Source: Patescibacteria group bacterium | GTDB lineage: Bacteria; Patescibacteriota; Patescibacteriia; UBA2591; UBA6264 | NCBI GenBank assembly: GCA_028713575.1 | Contig: JAQTOB010000011.1 | Span: forward strand, 1 to 18,531 | Direction: 5' to 3' | DNA: 18,531 nucleotides | Position numbers and translations under genes: made by a program | Notes under the pieces: model-generated | Told to the model about the DNA's origin: nothing | Databases searched by the model: none | The model's input: the letters and a program-made list of their open reading frames with translations, nothing else | Part shown: piece after piece, positions 2,324 to 14,932 of the stretch | Numbering within the stretch: the stretch's first letter is position 1 | Layout of the letters: the number at the start of each line of letters is the position of its first letter

Positions 2324-3590
2324 AGTTATCTTTTAAAACTATCCTCAGCCCGATAATTAACCAAAAAACAACAGCCAGATCATTCTTAAAATACGGCGTA
2401 TCAACCAAGCCATGGACCAAAATACAAACCATCGCGCCCATGACTGCGCCATTTAAAATTATATCTCTATTTTCCAAATTTTTAAACCCTTGTTTGAAAA
2501 ACCTTATTAAAATCCAAACAAAAACAATCAAACCAACCAAGCCCACTTCCAGCCAAATGGCCAAAAACAGATTATGCGGATATGGCTGAGGCGGAGCATA
2601 GAAATTTCTTCCGTCACGAGCGATAAAACTATTGGCCTGATAATCGGGGATTAGCCTTTCATATCCGTCCAATCCCGCGCCCAACACTGGTGAAACCTTC
2701 AACAGGGAAACAGCGCCGGACCAGATGTTCAAGCGGAACTGACCGGATAAATCCTGCAAAAGCGCCTTTTCCAAAAAATATTGGCGGGAAAATGGCCAGA
2801 CCATGATTAACAAAAAGGCAATAATCAACCCGGTTAAAACGTATTTCCTGGTTTTTTTCAGAACAACACCCCAAAAAGCCAAGCCAGCAAAAACGCCGAT
2901 AAGCGCGCCCTCTGAACGGGCTAAAACCAGCGCCCAAAAGGTAATAAAAAGAAAGACAAAACAACAAACAACTGACCGGATTTTCCCGCGGAAATTCACA
3001 ATCCCGCCCGCAACCAGAACGATAAGCGGCGCCAAATACAAACCCAAAAAATTAGGATGGGAAAACGGACCAGTCGCCCGCCATACCTGCGCCCGTCCCC
3101 AGACCTCGGTGCTGAAAACTCCCCCTCCCAGCCATTTTTGTAAAATCGCCCAAACAGAACAGCAGAAAGCGGAAAGGCCCAGGGTAAAAATCAATGTTTT
3201 TTTGTCCTGATCGTTTTTTATCAAATCCAACAAAACTATTAAAAACATAGCCGGCTCAATAAAATAGGCCCTCCAAACTCCGGCCGCGGCCCTTAATTCC
3301 GGCGCCACGAACATAGAGATAGTCGCCACAAGCAGCCACAAACAAATTAACCAGCGCCATCCGCTTAATAAATTGTTAAATCGTTTAATTGTTAAATTGT
3401 TAAATCGTTTTATCAGCCAAACCATAAAGAGAATCAAAATCATCAACTCCAAAAAAGTAAAAGGAATTCCGACAAACGAAAATTTTATCTGATAAGTCGG
3501 CAATAAAAACAATGTTAAATATAAAGCATGCCTCGGCTTAAACCAAGAGAGAAAAATGTAAAAAATAAAAAATAAAAAATAAAAAATCAT
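2298..3590 (-). CDS. O-antigen ligase (Wzy_C/RfaL-like) family polytopic membrane protein
   Basis: 430 aa with many TM segments. It carries the family-typical PHNLFLAIWLEVGLVGLIVFVW motif. An ATGA start/stop overlap links it to the flippase gene. Confidence 0.7.
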   Translation of the reverse strand: MIFYFLFFIFYIFLSWFKPRHALYLTLFLLPTYQIKFSFVGIPFTFLELMILILFMVWLIKRFNNLTIKRFNNLLSGWRWLICLWLLVATISMFVAPELRAAAGVWRAYFIEPAMFLIVLLDLIKNDQDKKTLIFTLGLSAFCCSVWAILQKWLGGGVFSTEVWGRAQVWRATGPFSHPNFLGLYLAPLIVLVAGGIVNFRGKIRSVVCCFVFLFITFWALVLARSEGALIGVFAGLAFWGVVLKKTRKYVLTGLIIAFLLIMVWPFSRQYFLEKALLQDLSGQFRLNIWSGAVSLLKVSPVLGAGLDGYERLIPDYQANSFIARDGRNFYAPPQPYPHNLFLAIWLEVGLVGLIVFVWILIRFFKQGFKNLENRDIILNGAVMGAMVCILVHGLVDTPYFKNDLAVVFWLIIGLRIVLKDNYENQISNN

Positions 3591-9382: not shown

Positions 9383-9420
9383 AAAAAAAACCCGCCAGAG
9401 GCGGGTCCGCCTTTGGCGGA
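9383..9420. terminator. Tandem GC hairpins (CCCGCC-AGA-GGCGGG, TCCGCC-TTT-GGCGGA); strong terminator for the minus-strand antiporter operon
   Basis: On the minus strand CCCGCC-TCT-GGCGGG is followed by T8. On the plus strand the hairpins follow tRNA-Pro but have no T tail. Confidence 0.65.
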
Positions 9421-9574
9421 AATCAAAATTCAGGTCTATGTACCCCGACCAACATCTTAATGAGAGCCTTAATGCCTTGATGAGGTGGAACCTCGTCAAG
9501 ACCATATCAAGACCATCAAGGTCTCGCCCTCTAATCAATCCAATTATTTTAAAACCAGATAAACTGGCCTTTTA

Positions 9575-10528
9575 TTACCCCCTGATAATCAGATAAACTA
9601 TGTAAATAACGTACAGACTGACGAAAATAATTCCCTGTTTGCGGGTCAATTTGGCTTTTCCTCCGGTCAAAGTAAAAACAAAAAGAAGAAAAGTAACAAG
9701 TAAAACGACTAAAATATCCGTATTTATTTTTGTGGAAACGGGCAATGGTCTGATTAAAGAAGTAATGCCCAAAACCCAAAAAATGTTGAAAATGTTGGAA
9801 CCGACGATGTTGCCTACAGCGATGTCGCTGTTTTTTTTCGCCGCCGCCACCACTGAGGTGGCTAATTCTGGTAAAGAGGTCCCAATGGCTACAACAGTTA
9901 AACCAATTAAGGCCTCACTCACTCCCAGCGACTGAGCGATTAAAAGCGCGCCGTCAACTATCCACTTTCCTCCCAAGACTAGACAACCCGTTCCAGCCAA
10001 AATCATCAAACCGGAAACAGGATACGAAAACTTCTTTATTTTATCGTCCATGTCCACATCCTTGTGCCTGATGCTTATGATGTAATATAAAAAAATCAAA
10101 AAAAACAGGAGCATAACCAGGCCGTCCGTCCGATCCAAAAAGGCCTCAAAAGTATTATTCAAAAAAACGTCACTAGCTAAAATCCATAAAACCACTACGG
10201 CCAAAACCGCCAGAGGAATCTCCTTCCAAATTGTATTATTTTTCACGATCAATGGCCTAACAATCATGGACAAACCGAGAATCAACAAGATATTAATAAT
10301 ATTGCTTCCCAGGATATTTCCCAGGGCGATATCAGCCGTTCCCTTGATGTTAGCAAGAACATTAACAACAAACTCTGGCATAGAAGTGCCGAAGGAAACG
10401 ATTGTCAAGCCGATAACGATCGTAGAAATGCCCGTTTTTTTTGCTAAAGAGGAAGCGCCGTCCACCAGCCAATCCGCCCCTTTGATGAGGAGAAAAAACC
10501 CAATGATAAATAAAAAGTAAGAAAGCAT
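9575..10528 (-). CDS. Ca2+/Na+ antiporter, CaCA family (YrbG-like)
   Basis: 317 aa with about 10 TM segments. Both alpha-repeat signatures are present: GNILGSNIINILLILG and GNIVGSNIFNIFWVLG. Confidence 0.85.
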   Translation of the reverse strand: MLSYFLFIIGFFLLIKGADWLVDGASSLAKKTGISTIVIGLTIVSFGTSMPEFVVNVLANIKGTADIALGNILGSNIINILLILGLSMIVRPLIVKNNTIWKEIPLAVLAVVVLWILASDVFLNNTFEAFLDRTDGLVMLLFFLIFLYYIISIRHKDVDMDDKIKKFSYPVSGLMILAGTGCLVLGGKWIVDGALLIAQSLGVSEALIGLTVVAIGTSLPELATSVVAAAKKNSDIAVGNIVGSNIFNIFWVLGITSLIRPLPVSTKINTDILVVLLVTFLLFVFTLTGGKAKLTRKQGIIFVSLYVIYIVYLIIRG

Positions 10529-10537
10529 ATTCTTTTT

Positions 10538-11785
10538 TTATTCGTATCTTAAGGCCTCAATCGGACTTTTTTTAGAAGCTTTTTTCGCCGGATAAAGGCC
10601 GAATATTATGCCAATAGAGCCGGCCACGCCCAATCCCAAAAGAATGGAGGGAAAAGAAATGACAAATTGCCAATTCTGGCTGAGTTGCTTTGCCAAGACT
10701 AAAGAAGCCAGATAAGACAAACCTATCCCCAGGCCGACGCCGATCAAACCGCCAACAATCGTTAAAATAATTGACTCTATTAAAAAATGAACCATAATAT
10801 CTTTTCCCCTCGCCCCTATGGCTTTTCTTAATCCTATTTCCCATGTTTTTTCAGTTACCGCCACCAGCATGATATTCATAATTCCCACTCCACCAACCAC
10901 TAAGGAAATGGCCGCGACTGAGGTAAGTAAAACGGTCAAAATCCCCGTAATCAAACTAATGGTTTCAATCATTTCTTCCGAAGTGGTTATATGAAAATCG
11001 TCATCTTCCGGGTCATCAATATTATGTAAATCCCTTAATGTTAATTTAATGTCTTCTACCATATTGGGAACTGATTCTTCGTTCTTGGCCATTACGTGAA
11101 TCTCTTGATAATAATCTATTCCTAAGAGATACTTTTGGGCCGTGGTATATGGAATAAGCACGAATTTATCAATATCCATAAAGGAAGAAACTTGTCCTTT
11201 TGCCGGAAAAATTGCTACTACTTTGAAATATTTATCCTTGATTTTTATTTTTTCCCCCAAAGCGTCAGCCGTGCCAAAAAGATCTTCTTTTACTTTGGCG
11301 CCGATGACCGCCACCGCGGCTAAAGATTTTATGTCTTCTTCGGTAAAATATTCTCCTTCTCCCGGATAAATATTATAAAGTTTGGCCATCCAATCGGCAG
11401 TCCATCCCAAAATCGTCGGTTTATATGTTTCTCCTTTATAAGAAACACTTCCCGGAACCATCAAGGATGGGGTGATTTCTTCCAAGTCGGGAACATTGTT
11501 TTTATTTTTTAGAGCCTTGATGTCTCTTTCCTTTAAAGAATCATTAAATAAAGTATCGGCCATGTCTTGAGGGCCCTTAACTTCTTTGCCGGGATTGATC
11601 TGAACGAAATTTCCGCCTAAAGACTTTACTTCGTTTAAAATTAGACTTTCAGCTGACTGCCCAATGGACATAATTAGGATAATGGAAGTAATGCCGATGA
11701 CAATGCCTAAAATTGTCAAAAATGAACGCGCTTTGTTCGTTTTTAACCCGATTAAAACCGTTTTAAGGGAATATTTTATTTTCAT
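10538..11785 (-). CDS. MacB/FtsX-type ABC transporter permease with periplasmic MacB_PCD domain
   Basis: 415 aa. An N-terminal TM is followed by a ~230-aa extracytoplasmic domain and a C-terminal FtsX-like three-TM bundle (GGVGIMNIMLVAVTEKTWEIGLRKAIGARGKDI). Confidence 0.85.
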   Translation of the reverse strand: MKIKYSLKTVLIGLKTNKARSFLTILGIVIGITSIILIMSIGQSAESLILNEVKSLGGNFVQINPGKEVKGPQDMADTLFNDSLKERDIKALKNKNNVPDLEEITPSLMVPGSVSYKGETYKPTILGWTADWMAKLYNIYPGEGEYFTEEDIKSLAAVAVIGAKVKEDLFGTADALGEKIKIKDKYFKVVAIFPAKGQVSSFMDIDKFVLIPYTTAQKYLLGIDYYQEIHVMAKNEESVPNMVEDIKLTLRDLHNIDDPEDDDFHITTSEEMIETISLITGILTVLLTSVAAISLVVGGVGIMNIMLVAVTEKTWEIGLRKAIGARGKDIMVHFLIESIILTIVGGLIGVGLGIGLSYLASLVLAKQLSQNWQFVISFPSILLGLGVAGSIGIIFGLYPAKKASKKSPIEALRYE

Positions 11786-11851
11786 ATGCCAAATTTGTAG
11801 AAATTTTCGGGCTCATTTTGTAGTGAAAAAAATTTCGCTACAAATTTGAGC

Positions 11852-11870
11852 ACCGAGCACTCAATTTATT
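11852..11870. repeat. Left arm of a perfect 19-bp inverted repeat bracketing the GIY-YIG ORF
   Basis: ACCGAGCACTCAATTTATT is the exact reverse complement of 12101..12119. It overlaps the GIY-YIG stop codon at 11866..11868. Confidence 0.9.
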
Positions 11871-12095
11871 CCTCTAAGCTATATTTAAAACGCTCTTTGA
11901 GATGACGAATTGCTTGACCTCTTTGTTTTAATTTTTTTTCTCGATTTCTCGCATCTTTTTCTGATTTGTAGGCTTCGTAATAAATAAGTTCGGGGTTTTT
12001 CTTTCTATGTTCTTTAAATCTTCTTTTTAAATCATCGGTGTAGCCTATATAGATTTTTTTCTTTATCTGATTTTTAATTATTACACGTAATACAT
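11866..12095 (-). pseudogene. Small GIY-YIG (URI-domain) nuclease gene with a 1-nt frameshift at codon 5
   Basis: The minus frame reads ...IIKNQIKKKIYIGYTDDLKRRFKEHRKKNPELIYYEAYKSEKDARNREKKLKQRGQAIRHLKERFKYSLEE*. ATG TAT TAC GTG (MYYV) at 12095 is one base out of frame and runs into TAA TAA. No ATG, GTG or TTG start exists in the main frame. Confidence 0.7.
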
Positions 12096-12100
12096 AAAAA

Positions 12101-12119
12101 AATAAATTGAGTGCTCGGT
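12101..12119. repeat. Right arm of the 19-bp inverted repeat
   Basis: AATAAATTGAGTGCTCGGT lies 5 nt upstream of the MYYV ATG. Confidence 0.9.
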
Positions 12120-12177
12120 AATGATTTTATTATTGAAAAATTTTCGCCCTTCGGGCTTAAAAATTCAGACAAAATCG

Positions 12178-12894
12178 CTATTTAAACAATCCGTCTTTAG
12201 CATAATGGCGATTGATTACTTTTTCGTCGCTTTCAATCAGGCCGTCTTTTAATTTGATGATTCTTTTGGCCATTTCTGAAGTATATTTTTCATGTGTAAC
12301 CATTATAATGGTATGCCCTTTTTCATTAAGATTTTGAATTATATCCATCACTGCTTGACCGGATTTTGAATCAAGATTTCCGGTTGGCTCATCGGCAAAA
12401 ATAACATCCGGGTCATTAACTAAAGCTCGGGCAATGGCCACTCTTTGTTTTTCTCCTCCGGAAAGTTGAGACCGTTCATGTTTTAAACGATGTGAAAGAC
12501 CCACCATTTCAAGCGCCTTTTTTGCTTTATCTTCCCATAATAATTCTTTTATCCTGGAATAATAAAGAGGCAATTTAACATTATCTAAAACATTGGTTCG
12601 GGGAAGCAAATTAAAAGTTTGAAAAATAAATCCCATTTTTTCATTCCTAATGCGGGCCAATTCGTCATCGCTGTATTGATTCATTGACTTGCCTTGAAAA
12701 AAATATTCCCCTTTGGTCGGCCGATCTAAAAATCCTAAAATGTGAAGCAGGGTTGATTTGCCGGAACCAGAAGGACCCATAATCGCCACAAATTCTCCTT
12801 TCTCAACAATAAAAGAATCCCCCCTTAAAGCCGGGGTTTTTATTTCTTCTTCTCCGTAAATTTTCTCTACTTTTTCTATTTTAATCAAAGGCAT
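12178..12894 (-). CDS. ABC transporter ATP-binding protein (MacB/LolD-type ATPase)
   Basis: Walker A is GPSGSGKST, the signature is [15 protein letters not shown], and Walker B is [12 protein letters not shown]. Confidence 0.9.
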
Positions 12895-12897
12895 ATC

Positions 12898-14616
12898 TTA
12901 AGGCATTATTATTTTATCTCCTTCTTCTAAACCGCCAATAACTTCTATTTTTCCCTCTGTACCTTTTGTCCCCACTTCTATTTCCCGTTCTTCAACGACC
13001 TCTTTTTTTTCTTGAATCTCCAACAATTTTACAAAATATTTATTGTCTTTTTTGAAAACCATCCTGCTGGGAATGGTCAAAACGTTCTTTTTCTCAGCTG
13101 TAATAATGTCCATATCAGCAGTCATTCCTGACTTTATTCTTTCATCTTGATCAATAAAGCTAGCGGTTATTTTATAGGTAGCCACTCCTTCTATTATTTT
13201 TTCCGCCGGATCAATACTTGTTATTTTGGCGGCAAAAACTACTTCATTGCCGTAAGCGTCAAGCACGACTTTAACCAAATTGTCCTCTTTAATCTTCGCG
13301 ATATCCGCTTCCGGCACATTGGCTTTCAATCCAAAATCATTTTGAGAAATGACAGAAACTATTGAAACGTTCGGCGAAATAATTTCTCCTACTTTGGCGT
13401 CCTGTCTCGTTACTGTCCCATTTATAGGAGATTTCAAAATTGTTTTTTCTATCTGAACCTGGATATTTTTTATTTCCGCCTCAACTTGTCTGATTTTGGC
13501 GCCTTGGGAAACAATGTTCGTTTCCGCCTGTTCAACTTTTGCTTCCTGCGCTTTTATCTGTTCATCAGTAGCGCCTGATTTTTTTAAGGCTAATTCATTC
13601 TTTGCTAAGTTCAAATTATTTTCGGCGGTATTTATCTGAGCCTGAGCCGCGGCAATATTATTCTTATTGGTATTTTTTTGGGAAGTAATTGCCTGTCTCT
13701 GCGTATTAATGCTGGAAATGGAGGCGTTAATGTTCACTCTGGCCGTGTTGATGTTGCTTTTATAAGTATTTGAAACGGTTTGCGATAAATTCACGGCGTT
13801 ATTAACGACGTCATTCAAGCGGTTTAAAAAATCTCTGATGCTATTTAGATAATCTTCTCCATTAATTAAAAATTGTTCTGGGTTGTCTAAATTAAAATTG
13901 TCAATGTCTGATTTGAACGAAATTAAAATATTTTTAATAGTGAGGCGTCCGCTCTCCGCGTCAATTTTTGCTTGGGAATCAGAGGTAGAAATGGTTAATT
14001 GAGGAAGTTCCGAATTATCATTGGAAAAAAGATCGTCTACCTGCTTATTAACCGCGTCATCGGCATAGAAATAAGCGCTATTTAAAATATCTTCCACGTC
14101 ATCATAAAGGTTAGCTAAATCAACGTCCGCTTTATTTTGAACATTTTCCAAATTTATTTTTTCATTGACCAGGGTTTTCTCCGCGCTGGCCACTTTTGTT
14201 TCCGATAATTGGATATCTTCCGGCTTAGCGCCGTTTTTCAATTCTTTTAAATTAGCTTGTTCTGTTTCCAACATTGCCCGGGCTTGGTTTAGTCCTGCCC
14301 GAACGCTTTCCAAATTAGCTTCGGCTTGAGTTAATTGCGCTTTTAAGTCGGCATTGTCTAAAATAACCATTGATTGGCTGATTGCCACGACGTCCCCGAT
14401 AGCTACATTCACTTCTGCCACTTTTCCGGTTTTTTCAAAGGCCAAATCAACGTTTTCCGCCGCTTCCACCCGGCCGGTCACGTTAACTTCCTGTGTTAAA
14501 TCGGATTTTTCTACTATTACAAAATTATGGGACTCCTCTTTGTTTCTCAGTAAAACAAATAAAATTATTATTACTAGTCCGATAATAACAAAAATGTATT
14601 TTTTCTTAATTTTCAT
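12898..14616 (-). CDS. HlyD/MacA-type membrane-fusion (periplasmic adaptor) protein with an unusually long coiled-coil hairpin
   Basis: 572 aa. It has an N-terminal TM (YIFVIIGLVIIILFVLL) and lipoyl-like segments at both ends (GRVEAAENVDLAFEKTGKVAEV... / SPINGTVTRQDAKVGE). About 300 aa of Q/N/A/E-rich heptad sequence lies between them. A C-terminal beta-barrel-like domain follows. Confidence 0.75.
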   Translation of the reverse strand: MKIKKKYIFVIIGLVIIILFVLLRNKEESHNFVIVEKSDLTQEVNVTGRVEAAENVDLAFEKTGKVAEVNVAIGDVVAISQSMVILDNADLKAQLTQAEANLESVRAGLNQARAMLETEQANLKELKNGAKPEDIQLSETKVASAEKTLVNEKINLENVQNKADVDLANLYDDVEDILNSAYFYADDAVNKQVDDLFSNDNSELPQLTISTSDSQAKIDAESGRLTIKNILISFKSDIDNFNLDNPEQFLINGEDYLNSIRDFLNRLNDVVNNAVNLSQTVSNTYKSNINTARVNINASISSINTQRQAITSQKNTNKNNIAAAQAQINTAENNLNLAKNELALKKSGATDEQIKAQEAKVEQAETNIVSQGAKIRQVEAEIKNIQVQIEKTILKSPINGTVTRQDAKVGEIISPNVSIVSVISQNDFGLKANVPEADIAKIKEDNLVKVVLDAYGNEVVFAAKITSIDPAEKIIEGVATYKITASFIDQDERIKSGMTADMDIITAEKKNVLTIPSRMVFKKDNKYFVKLLEIQEKKEVVEEREIEVGTKGTEGKIEVIGGLEEGDKIIMP

Positions 14617-14645
14617 AAATTATTCACTTAGATTAGATTTCCGTT

Positions 14646-14674
14646 ATTATAACCATTAAATGACCTATTGTCAA
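14646..14674 (-). promoter_or_regulatory. Consensus sigma70 promoter TTGACA-N17-TATAAT for the adaptor/ABC/antiporter operon
   Basis: On the minus strand the -35 is at 14674..14669 and the -10 at 14651..14646, about 30 nt upstream of the ATG at 14616. Confidence 0.6.
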
Positions 14675-14684
14675 GAAAACCCAC

Positions 14685-14700
14685 TTGCCAAATGTGGCAA
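14685..14700. promoter_or_regulatory. 16-bp palindrome TTGCCA-AATG-TGGCAA between the divergent promoters (possible operator)
   Basis: The half-sites are perfect 6-bp inverted repeats, located just upstream of the operon -35. Confidence 0.3.
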
Positions 14701-14719
14701 ATAATGCCCCTTTCTCTAT

Positions 14720-14747
14720 TTGACAAAGATGATAAAAATGATAGAAT
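14720..14747 (+). promoter_or_regulatory. Sigma70-like promoter TTGACA-N16-TAGAAT (TG at -15/-14) for tRNA-Gly
   Basis: The -35 is at 14720..14725 and the -10 at 14742..14747. tRNA-Gly begins at 14806. Confidence 0.55.
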
Positions 14748-14805
14748 CATTATGCTGTAGGTATCGTAATAATGTTTTGTCTTTTCTTATCTCCCTAAAA
14801 ATTAT

Positions 14806-14876
14806 GCGGGATTCGTACAATGGTAGTATGCCACTCTTCCAAGGTGGAGATGCCAGTCCGATTCTGGTATCCCGCT
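14806..14876 (+). tRNA. tRNA-Gly(TCC), CCA not encoded
   Basis: Acceptor GCGGGAT/ATCCCGC, anticodon arm CCACT-CTTCCAA-GGTGG, T arm GCCAG-TCCGATT-CTGGT, discriminator T. Total 71 nt. Confidence 0.9.
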
Positions 14877-14932
14877 TTTCAATATAATTCACTGGGAAAC
14901 GGGGATTCTCAGTCACATTATTTATTTTTTAA

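Follow-up and report, generated by a model that had tools for sequence, protein, structure and literature searches.

A broken GIY-YIG nuclease cassette within a three-hairpin repeat at a transporter-operon junction of a Patescibacteria group bacterium

Here we describe a 392-nt gap between two genes of an ATP-binding cassette (ABC) transporter operon in a Patescibacteria group bacterium, in which the remains of a small GIY-YIG nuclease gene lie enclosed by hairpins. The stretch of DNA analysed (the window) covers positions 1-18,531 of contig JAQTOB010000011.1 from GCA_028713575.1 (GTDB UBA2591; UBA6264), a metagenome-type assembly of 692 kb in 24 contigs with 35% GC. The genes of the operon around the gap are the following:

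12898-14616, minus strand: HlyD-like adaptor gene
12178-12894, minus strand: ABC ATPase gene
10538-11785, minus strand: MacB/FtsX permease gene
9575-10528, minus strand: Na/Ca exchanger gene

The uneven spacing of these genes had been remarked upon in an annotation made from the sequence alone (the first-pass annotation), and it is as described there: neighbouring gaps measure 3 and 9 nt, whereas the ATPase and permease genes stand 392 nt apart (11786-12177). What fills the gap can be divided into an inner cassette, which holds the GIY-YIG open reading frame (ORF) and is closed by an inverted repeat (the middle hairpin, H2), and an outer carrier made of two further hairpin modules, H1 and H3.

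12120..12177, minus strand: H1, the 5' hairpin module of the carrier, beginning right after the ATPase stop and ending ...AAAATCATT against the cassette
11852..12119, minus strand: GIY-YIG cassette bounded by inverted repeats (H2 plus ORF), 268 bp, shared with loci L206, L026 and L027
12101..12119, minus strand: left arm of the 19-bp perfect inverted repeat, ACCGAGCACTCAATTTATT, after which the ATG follows at a distance of 5 nt
12081..12095, minus strand: remnant gene start, ATG TAT TAC GTG then TAA, with a one-base deletion at 12082/12081
11866..12084, minus strand: GIY-YIG main frame, 72 codons plus TAA, without a usable start and missing the first beta-strand and its tyrosine
11852..11870, minus strand: right arm of the same 19-bp repeat, sharing bases with the TAA stop
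11786..11851, minus strand: H3, the 3' hairpin module of the carrier, GCTCAAATTTGTAG...CTACAAATTTGGCAT, ending at the permease ATG and containing the AAATTTGTAG hairpin and the 11800-11813 string
11783..11785, minus strand: start codon of the MacB-type permease, immediately next to where H3 ends

The entire 392-nt gap is an insertion, as the first-pass annotation had supposed, and it fills exactly the space between the stop codon of the ATPase gene and the ATG of the permease gene. The orthologous junction could be located in 19 relatives, most of which have 5-17 nt there; in the same-genus genomes G001 and G002 it is empty, with 6 and 9 nt from stop to ATG, and H1 is missing from the empty junctions. 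In another genus, G018 carries a 176-nt ORF-less homologue of the element at this very place, while its congener G013 has 14 nt. At the same junction, genome G014 (L009) has 258 nt of inserted AT-rich sequence that is unrelated to the element and includes a short inverted repeat (AAAATGACA/TGTCATTTT). Two other identities for the gap were tried and rejected. For an intron (group I or II), a ribozyme or another known structured RNA, Rfam covariance models run against positions 11500-12500 at E up to 10 gave nothing near a gathering score, and for a promoter or terminator within the gap, consensus matches did not exceed those in shuffled sequence.

The ORF in the gap matches PF01541 (GIY-YIG) with an E-value of 7e-10, and its reading as a GIY-YIG gene frameshifted by one base after MYYV, already made in the first-pass annotation, stands. 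The ATG at 12095-12093 encodes MYYV and is followed by TAA; the remainder of the ORF lies in a different frame, in which no ATG, GTG or TTG start is present. An exact look-up of the 70-aa gene call made for the window found no record. About 320 relatives of 75-76 residues open with MYYVYIIKNQ..., and when compared with these and with a sister allele whose N-terminus is in frame (L025, a sister-strain contig from Logan SRR12486999 with the same element at the same site), the window is short of one base at 12082/12081. A sequencing error, which the first-pass annotation had allowed for, is unlikely because the same deletion occurs in two other assemblies from other samples, JGI 3300014206 (L221, all 392 nt) and Logan SRR22315509 (L222, 272 nt), in both cases at 100% identity. 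A programmed frameshift was likewise considered. We read the window copy as a pseudogene instead because a -1 slip after GTG, by which the two frames would be rejoined, places Val where the first conserved tyrosine should stand, and because the main frame lacks a start codon of its own. Damage of another sort is seen in the sister allele, which has lost its stop codon, so that its frame continues through the repeat arm to the permease ATG. The window copy, frameshifted in three assemblies, is dead, which agrees with the earlier description of an element in decay, and for the cell it probably means little more than a longer operon.

Past the break, every residue that is invariant in the relatives (Y-I-G, R, H, Y-Y-E and R-E) is still encoded in the window frame, and the invariant GIY-YIG residues align with Y17, R27 and H31 of I-TevI; the first (GIY) strand is out of frame. 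A structure model of an intact relative (P0003) predicted with AlphaFold at a pLDDT (predicted local distance difference test) of 93 presents a bare beta-beta-alpha-beta-alpha domain with a long C-terminal helix (E2-9, E14-20, H23-29, E35-43 and H46-75). Six of its seven top matches in the PDB are GIY-YIG proteins (1ZG2, 1YWL, I-TevI and Slx1), with E-values that are weak because the protein is small, and the fold is nearest to the UPF0213 proteins, the catalytic domain of I-TevI and Slx1. The PF01541 match, the catalytic positions and the predicted fold all place the protein in the GIY-YIG superfamily. The protein, a single 76-aa domain, contains no DNA-binding domain, and the protein profile TIGR01453 matches only residues 4-33, with a score under the cut-off.

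The arms of the perfect 19-bp inverted repeat (12119-12101 and 11870-11852) are where the first-pass annotation had placed them, and the cassette that they bound, which it took to be a discrete unit, recurs at unrelated junctions. A cassette with 95.2% identity to the window lies between rpiB and an rpe-like gene (L206), where it encodes an intact protein (P0121) and was found in three samples; others lie between parA and parB (L026; 90.4% identity) and between two pilin genes (L027; 88.9% identity). All three carry the same 19-bp arms as the window, and directly outside these arms, in H1 and H3, their identity to the window is 49-65%. With 89-95% identity inside the arms and 49-65% immediately outside, alignment delimits the cassette as a discrete unit common to unrelated loci, with flanks that are not related to one another. 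An all-species genome scan for 16 nt of the repeat arm gave 109 matches, mostly at chance level, and about ten contigs of the candidate phyla radiation (CPR) were informative. On two CPR contigs (L067 and L104), hairpins with the 16-nt arm of the cassette are found inside 23S rRNA gene sequence, and these may relate to the GIY-YIG insertions outside introns in CPR rRNA genes (Tsurumaki et al., 2024; PMC11270868).

Side observations come from L027 and from further small GIY-YIG genes of the source genome (G000). At L027, a short dead frame (ATGGTTTTCCACAGC...) stands after H3 at about 3100-3150 and is like the start of the flippase-like gene behind a carrier in this genome (C2:1858-1880); it may be a gene start carried over from an earlier site. 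An intact paralogue of 55% identity (C17:1597-1809), closed by a 14-bp inverted repeat, sits shortly before an intact wecB-like gene, inside a dead duplicate of that gene's first ~16 codons, and its left flank (...AACTTT, then ACC) resembles the junction of H1 and H2 in the carrier. At C14:127-336, C14:5524-5682, C1:50869-51102 and C12:15434-15526, other small GIY-YIG genes have an intact tRNA gene on one side and, on the other, a 5' copy of that tRNA gene which is truncated and interrupted by a hairpin. A GIY-YIG remnant without its N-terminal strand (C6:41432-41629) has a TCTACGAGGCG-type tandem repeat upstream.

The outer layer is itself a repeat. H1 folds as a hairpin when treated as single-stranded DNA (ssDNA), and H1-like modules (...TTTTGTC...apical GC hairpin...ACAAAAYCTTT) occupy the same position in about 37 copies from nine genomes, while H3 is 85-96% identical in other genera and families. 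In the first-pass annotation, similar strings in the two flanks (11800-11813 and 12135-12157) had been taken for a duplicated target, and AAATTTGTAG hairpins in front of the permease start had been listed as extra features. The strings and the hairpins are present, but they find a different explanation. The first string is the 3' half of the H3 stem and the second is the apex of H1; both contain a self-complementary GAAAATTTTC-type run that builds the AT-rich stems of H1 and H3, and both recur in all copies. The AAATTTGTAG hairpins are not extra but belong to the conserved H3 module, in which the CAAATTTGTAG/CTACAAATTTG hairpin is also present (11790-11800 / 11838-11848). No target-site duplication was found, direct repeats being absent both from the cassette ends (...CATT/ACC...GGT/GCTC..., slashes marking the junctions) and from the two ends of the outer 392-nt unit, which is also without terminal repeats. 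As ssDNA the window element folds with a z-score of -3.3; an ORF-less copy folds as three flush hairpins with a z-score of -8.4 under RNA parameters. That the repeats fold the mRNA and thereby sequester the ORF, as had been offered in the first-pass annotation, is possible.

The ORF-less copy on contig C5 of the source genome served as a BLAST query against 41 related genomes. Matches of this composite numbered 8 in G000 (the source genome), 6 in G001, 3 in G002, 12 in G003, 20 in G014, 9 in G022, 11 in G039 and 7 in G027, and 29 of the 41 related genomes gave none. Forty match places were fetched and nine other copies added, and 40 copies were parsed. Their junctions are constant (...AAAAYCTTT / ACC-[H2]-GGT / RCKCAAATTT...TTTGGY(AT) / ATG). 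In the 37 copies with a located ATG, this codon opens a real ORF and stands 57-66 nt past H2, save for two exceptions with extra inserted DNA; the upstream ORF terminates at the base of H1 in 35 of 40 copies, its stop codon often forming part of the stem (TAAAGG...CCTTTA). The carrier is thus a repeat that spans stop to start. In the C5 copy, between rpsU and yqeY, the 17-22 nt spacer of empty relatives has been wholly replaced. Other ORF-less copies in this genome lie between rpsI and a flippase-like gene (C2) and before murJ (C7), with partial copies on C18 and C19, and C4 bears another copy with an ORF. This GIY-YIG cassette (C4:50520-51280), set in a carrier, has an in-frame TAG as its second codon, and a second, ORF-less hairpin (CCCAGCACATAA...) follows it before the next gene.

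Modules of the repeat show turnover across genomes. Orthologous composites of G001 and G002 have H1 and H3 in common and differ in their type of H2. In G003, one locus (L159) carries a GIY-YIG ORF among otherwise ORF-less copies (L156-L162), and six ORF-less copies share its stem type (ACCCCCTCCTTTT). At least nine copies in G014 have identical 14-nt H2 arms, and those read share one 58-nt H2 set in different H1 subtypes; two copies of this genome (L164 and L170) hold an H2 hairpin nested in the loop of another H2, and in a third (L165) H3 contains a nested inverted-repeat element of another kind, about 110 nt long. In G022 and G009 it is another GIY-YIG subfamily that occupies H2. Composite-bearing genomes are richer in GIY-YIG matches (median 4 vs 1; Spearman 0.43 among the 41 relatives), a comparison of related genomes that is descriptive only. 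The three-hairpin unit is a repeated element of CPR-type bacteria resembling miniature inverted-repeat transposable elements (MITEs), and the majority of its copies have lost the ORF or never had it. The first-pass annotation had also allowed for a cassette present once, with no empty sites anywhere, and neither holds: the cassette is found at other loci and empty sites exist in relatives.

Comparison of the stems argues that the hairpins are selected for pairing. The H2 set comprises 23 distinct stems whose register is set by the conserved flanks. Pairing is found in 92.5% of cells, a percentage somewhat inflated by the fact that the 5' arms were found by complementarity, although the register is still fixed by the flanks; 11 of 14 pairs have compensatory changes, and the observed score was attained by 0 of 500 shuffles. 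Conservation is seen in the outer ACC...GGT, where two of the three pairs are invariant and the third is present in 22 of 23 stems (with one G.U wobble). The H3 consensus forms a hairpin of 18 bp in which 7 pairs covary, among them the outermost, which adjoins H2 on one side and the ATG on the other (G-C in 13 sequences and A-T in 10). Covariation in these alignments is clear, but mismatches within the stems are not specific to RNA over DNA, as G.U (G.T) mismatches (10) show no excess over A.C (14).

The history of the element can be followed in a single pair of metagenome assemblies, in which positions 9393-14892 of the window were compared with L025. The HlyD and ATPase genes (2436 nt) have 0 substitutions and the ~2.7 kb upstream of the element 1 difference, while the element itself (392 nt) has 10 substitutions (9 of them transitions) and an indel, and the ~2.4 kb downstream have 12 substitutions. 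The four neighbouring genes together have 9 substitutions in 4638 nt and the element 10 in 392 nt (Fisher p 4e-7), so that the element diverges about 13 times faster than its flanks. This excess fits either relaxed constraint or conversion from another copy. The DNA is identical upstream and 0.5% divergent downstream, a step which suggests that a recombination boundary lies at the element. In the otherwise identical strain of JGI 3300014206 (L221), the HlyD-like gene is called in two pieces (435+ and 122 residues), which suggests that this gene is broken there.

From these observations we propose, with a probability of about 0.6, that the gap is a selfish insertion of two layers: a GIY-YIG cassette closed by an inverted repeat, inside an H1/H3 carrier, homing among dispersed copies of the repeat. 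The inner layer would be the 268-bp cassette, whose sole content is a 76-codon single-domain GIY-YIG gene closed by the 19-bp hairpin, and the outer layer would be H1 and H3, flush against it. By analogy with the Ssn nucleases, single-domain GIY-YIG enzymes that cleave ssDNA only and bind hairpin repeats situated on either side of their own genes (Chenal et al., 2025; PMC11893778), the nuclease would recognise the hairpin in single-stranded DNA and nick near its base. Repair or replication by the host would then copy the cassette from filled carriers into other copies of the carrier, with H1 and H3 presumably acting as homology arms. One step further is the proposal that cassette and carrier constitute an undescribed class of mobile DNA, whose only enzyme would be a 76-residue GIY-YIG nuclease of ssDNA hairpins homing from carrier to carrier, and whose carrier would be fitted between stop and start so that the operons of a compact genome keep working; this we regard as tentative, with the balance of likelihood against it.

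Several results weigh against the proposed two-layer insertion. The search for the repeat and the cassette that the first-pass annotation had suggested recovers a near-identical cassette at three other junctions elsewhere, but the 19-bp repeat (the type-A stem) has no second copy in the 692-kb genome. A pattern search of 41 genomes for an empty carrier (H1 joined to H3 without H2) stayed at the level of controls, its two best matches being unrelated, so the proposed landing site has never been seen empty; no excision intermediate was seen either. In G014, no partner gene bearing the stem of the abundant ORF-less copies was found among the inspected GIY genes, which have other arms. The published Ssn-related motif (SRM), HGTCWYN(0-2)YYVSBRHN(0-5)WNVSBRGN(0-2)RNCYNB, has 2 matches in the genome where Markov controls average 0.6, none of them in or near the element, and the hairpins that flank the nuclease gene of the window are of non-SRM sequence. 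The conservation of H3, up to 96% across families, could reflect a host function instead of mobility, and the somewhat inflated pairing figure for H2 belongs on the same side. Finally, GIY-YIG enzymes to our knowledge form no covalent intermediate, so that the nuclease alone would not be a cut-and-paste transposase.

Of the other explanations, the one that survives best is that the three-hairpin unit serves the host, mainly as a cis-element at the level of RNA (in mRNA processing or stabilisation, as an internal start signal, or in keeping stop and start close), with the cassette as a homing-endonuclease passenger in the middle hairpin. The placement of the unit speaks for it: it is always on the sense strand and always separates a stop from the ATG that comes next, the end of H3 is 0-2 nt away from this ATG in nearly all of the 37 copies, the upstream ORF ends at the base of H1 in the large share of copies given above, and every ORF seen is co-oriented with the host genes. 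The similarity of H3 between families and the tight folding of the ORF-less copy under RNA parameters point in the same direction. However, genomes of the same genus manage with 6-9 nt at the same junction, and the distribution is patchy, with the unit lacking from most of the relatives searched. Nested and truncated copies exist, and neither an Rfam match, nor promoter or terminator signals above chance, nor an RNA-specific pattern of mismatches accompanies the unit. We therefore consider a host element unlikely, if still the strongest competitor of the two-layer insertion.

Less probable again is a domesticated system of the kind proposed for Neisseria, in which the hairpins would serve as marks on DNA and the nuclease, without spreading itself, would act during natural transformation to restrict or modulate the ssDNA that enters. 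The published Ssn enzymes that modulate transformation are small and single-domain and are flanked by their own hairpin repeats (PMC11893778), and the greater number of GIY-YIG genes in composite-bearing genomes, descriptive as that figure is, could be understood in the same way. Yet the window copy and several paralogues are pseudogenes, one genome holds many divergent GIY copies with different stems, and the SRM motif is absent. The stem of the window cassette occurs nowhere else in the genome, which leaves nothing for its nuclease to police. As for the frameshift or the whole arrangement being an assembly artefact or a chance palindrome, the metagenome-type assembly in 24 contigs is its one recommendation, and it is hardly credible, given that the deletion-bearing sequence is identical in two other assemblies from other samples and that a perfect 19-bp inverted repeat, far beyond chance, recurs with the same ORF at other loci.

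If the small nuclease drives the spread of the hairpins, the two-layer insertion would be a minimal mobile element consisting of one 76-residue hydrolase and one hairpin, and it would give Ssn-type ssDNA nucleases a natural role outside Neisseria. Were the tentative proposal of an undescribed class true, this class would be the hydrolase counterpart of the IS200/IS605 systems and of those in which REPINs, formed from repetitive extragenic palindromes (REPs), are paired with REP-associated tyrosine transposases (RAYTs). For the annotation of CPR genomes, the family accounts for many unexpectedly long gaps, for orphan genes labelled "GIY-YIG family" and for intergenic blocks of high conservation, and because each cassette type has its own stem sequence, the pairs of stem and enzyme amount to a catalogue of candidate sequence-specific cutters of ssDNA.

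How does this element compare with the systems already known? With classical insertion sequences (ISs) and MITEs of the DDE type, the cassette shares terminal inverted repeats, multiple copies and sites both filled and empty, but it is without target-site duplication. Bacterial MITEs such as Correia/NEMIS are likewise short, repeated, hairpin-forming intergenic insertions that are co-transcribed and occur in nested copies. The element described here departs from them in its exact placement from stop codon to start codon and in the nuclease gene that some of its copies contain, and neither outer terminal repeats nor a duplicated target could be found in it. Free-standing GIY-YIG homing endonucleases (T4 Seg and I-TevI) have the catalytic core in common with the protein described here and resemble its gene in being inserted between genes, in being present or absent among close relatives and in passing through cycles of gain and decay; unlike them, the present protein is without a DNA-binding domain, and its gene is enclosed in its own inverted repeat and nested in a repeat family at many unrelated loci of cellular chromosomes. 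GIY-YIG ORFs inserted in CPR rRNA genes, though not in introns, have been reported (Tsurumaki et al., 2024; PMC11270868), and they may be of the same kind as the cassette.

A closer likeness in layout is found in REP/REPIN-RAYT and IS200/IS605 systems. In these as in our element, short hairpin repeats are dispersed between genes, the same hairpins stand on both sides of a small enzyme gene, copies that lack the gene are more numerous than those that have it, and there is no target duplication. The enzyme is different, being a GIY-YIG hydrolase here and an HUH tyrosine (Y1) transposase there: the sole ORF of the element is the GIY-YIG gene, with no Y1 transposase in it, and covalent strand-transfer chemistry is lacking. 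Position, moreover, is tied to start codons in the element described here.

The closest published system appears to be Ssn/NTS (Ssn family, CDD cd10448), to judge from protein size and the association with hairpins, and the authors who described it considered the NTS-ssnA-NTS layout IS-like and drew the analogy with REP/RAYT; CPR bacteria are not mentioned in that work (PMC11893778). The remark of the first-pass annotation that small GIY-YIG genes are not usually described with repeats of their own is to that extent out of date, since flanking hairpin repeats around Ssn genes are described there. SsnA of Neisseria meningitidis and the nuclease described here (75-76 aa in the relatives) are both single-domain GIY-YIG proteins of fewer than 100 residues without a DNA-binding domain, and both are encoded by genes set between hairpin-forming repeats of which gene-less examples exist elsewhere in genomes. 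In contrast to Ssn, where each repeat is a self-contained hairpin, the arms here pair across the ORF as one long-range hairpin, and the cassette lies inside a three-hairpin carrier that reaches from stop to start, in copies that are multiple, divergent and often broken. Our full-text literature searches returned no description of the three-hairpin composite or of GIY-YIG cassettes bounded by inverted repeats in CPR-type bacteria, and the element represents a widespread family that appears to be undescribed in the literature searched and is related in kind to Ssn/NTS.

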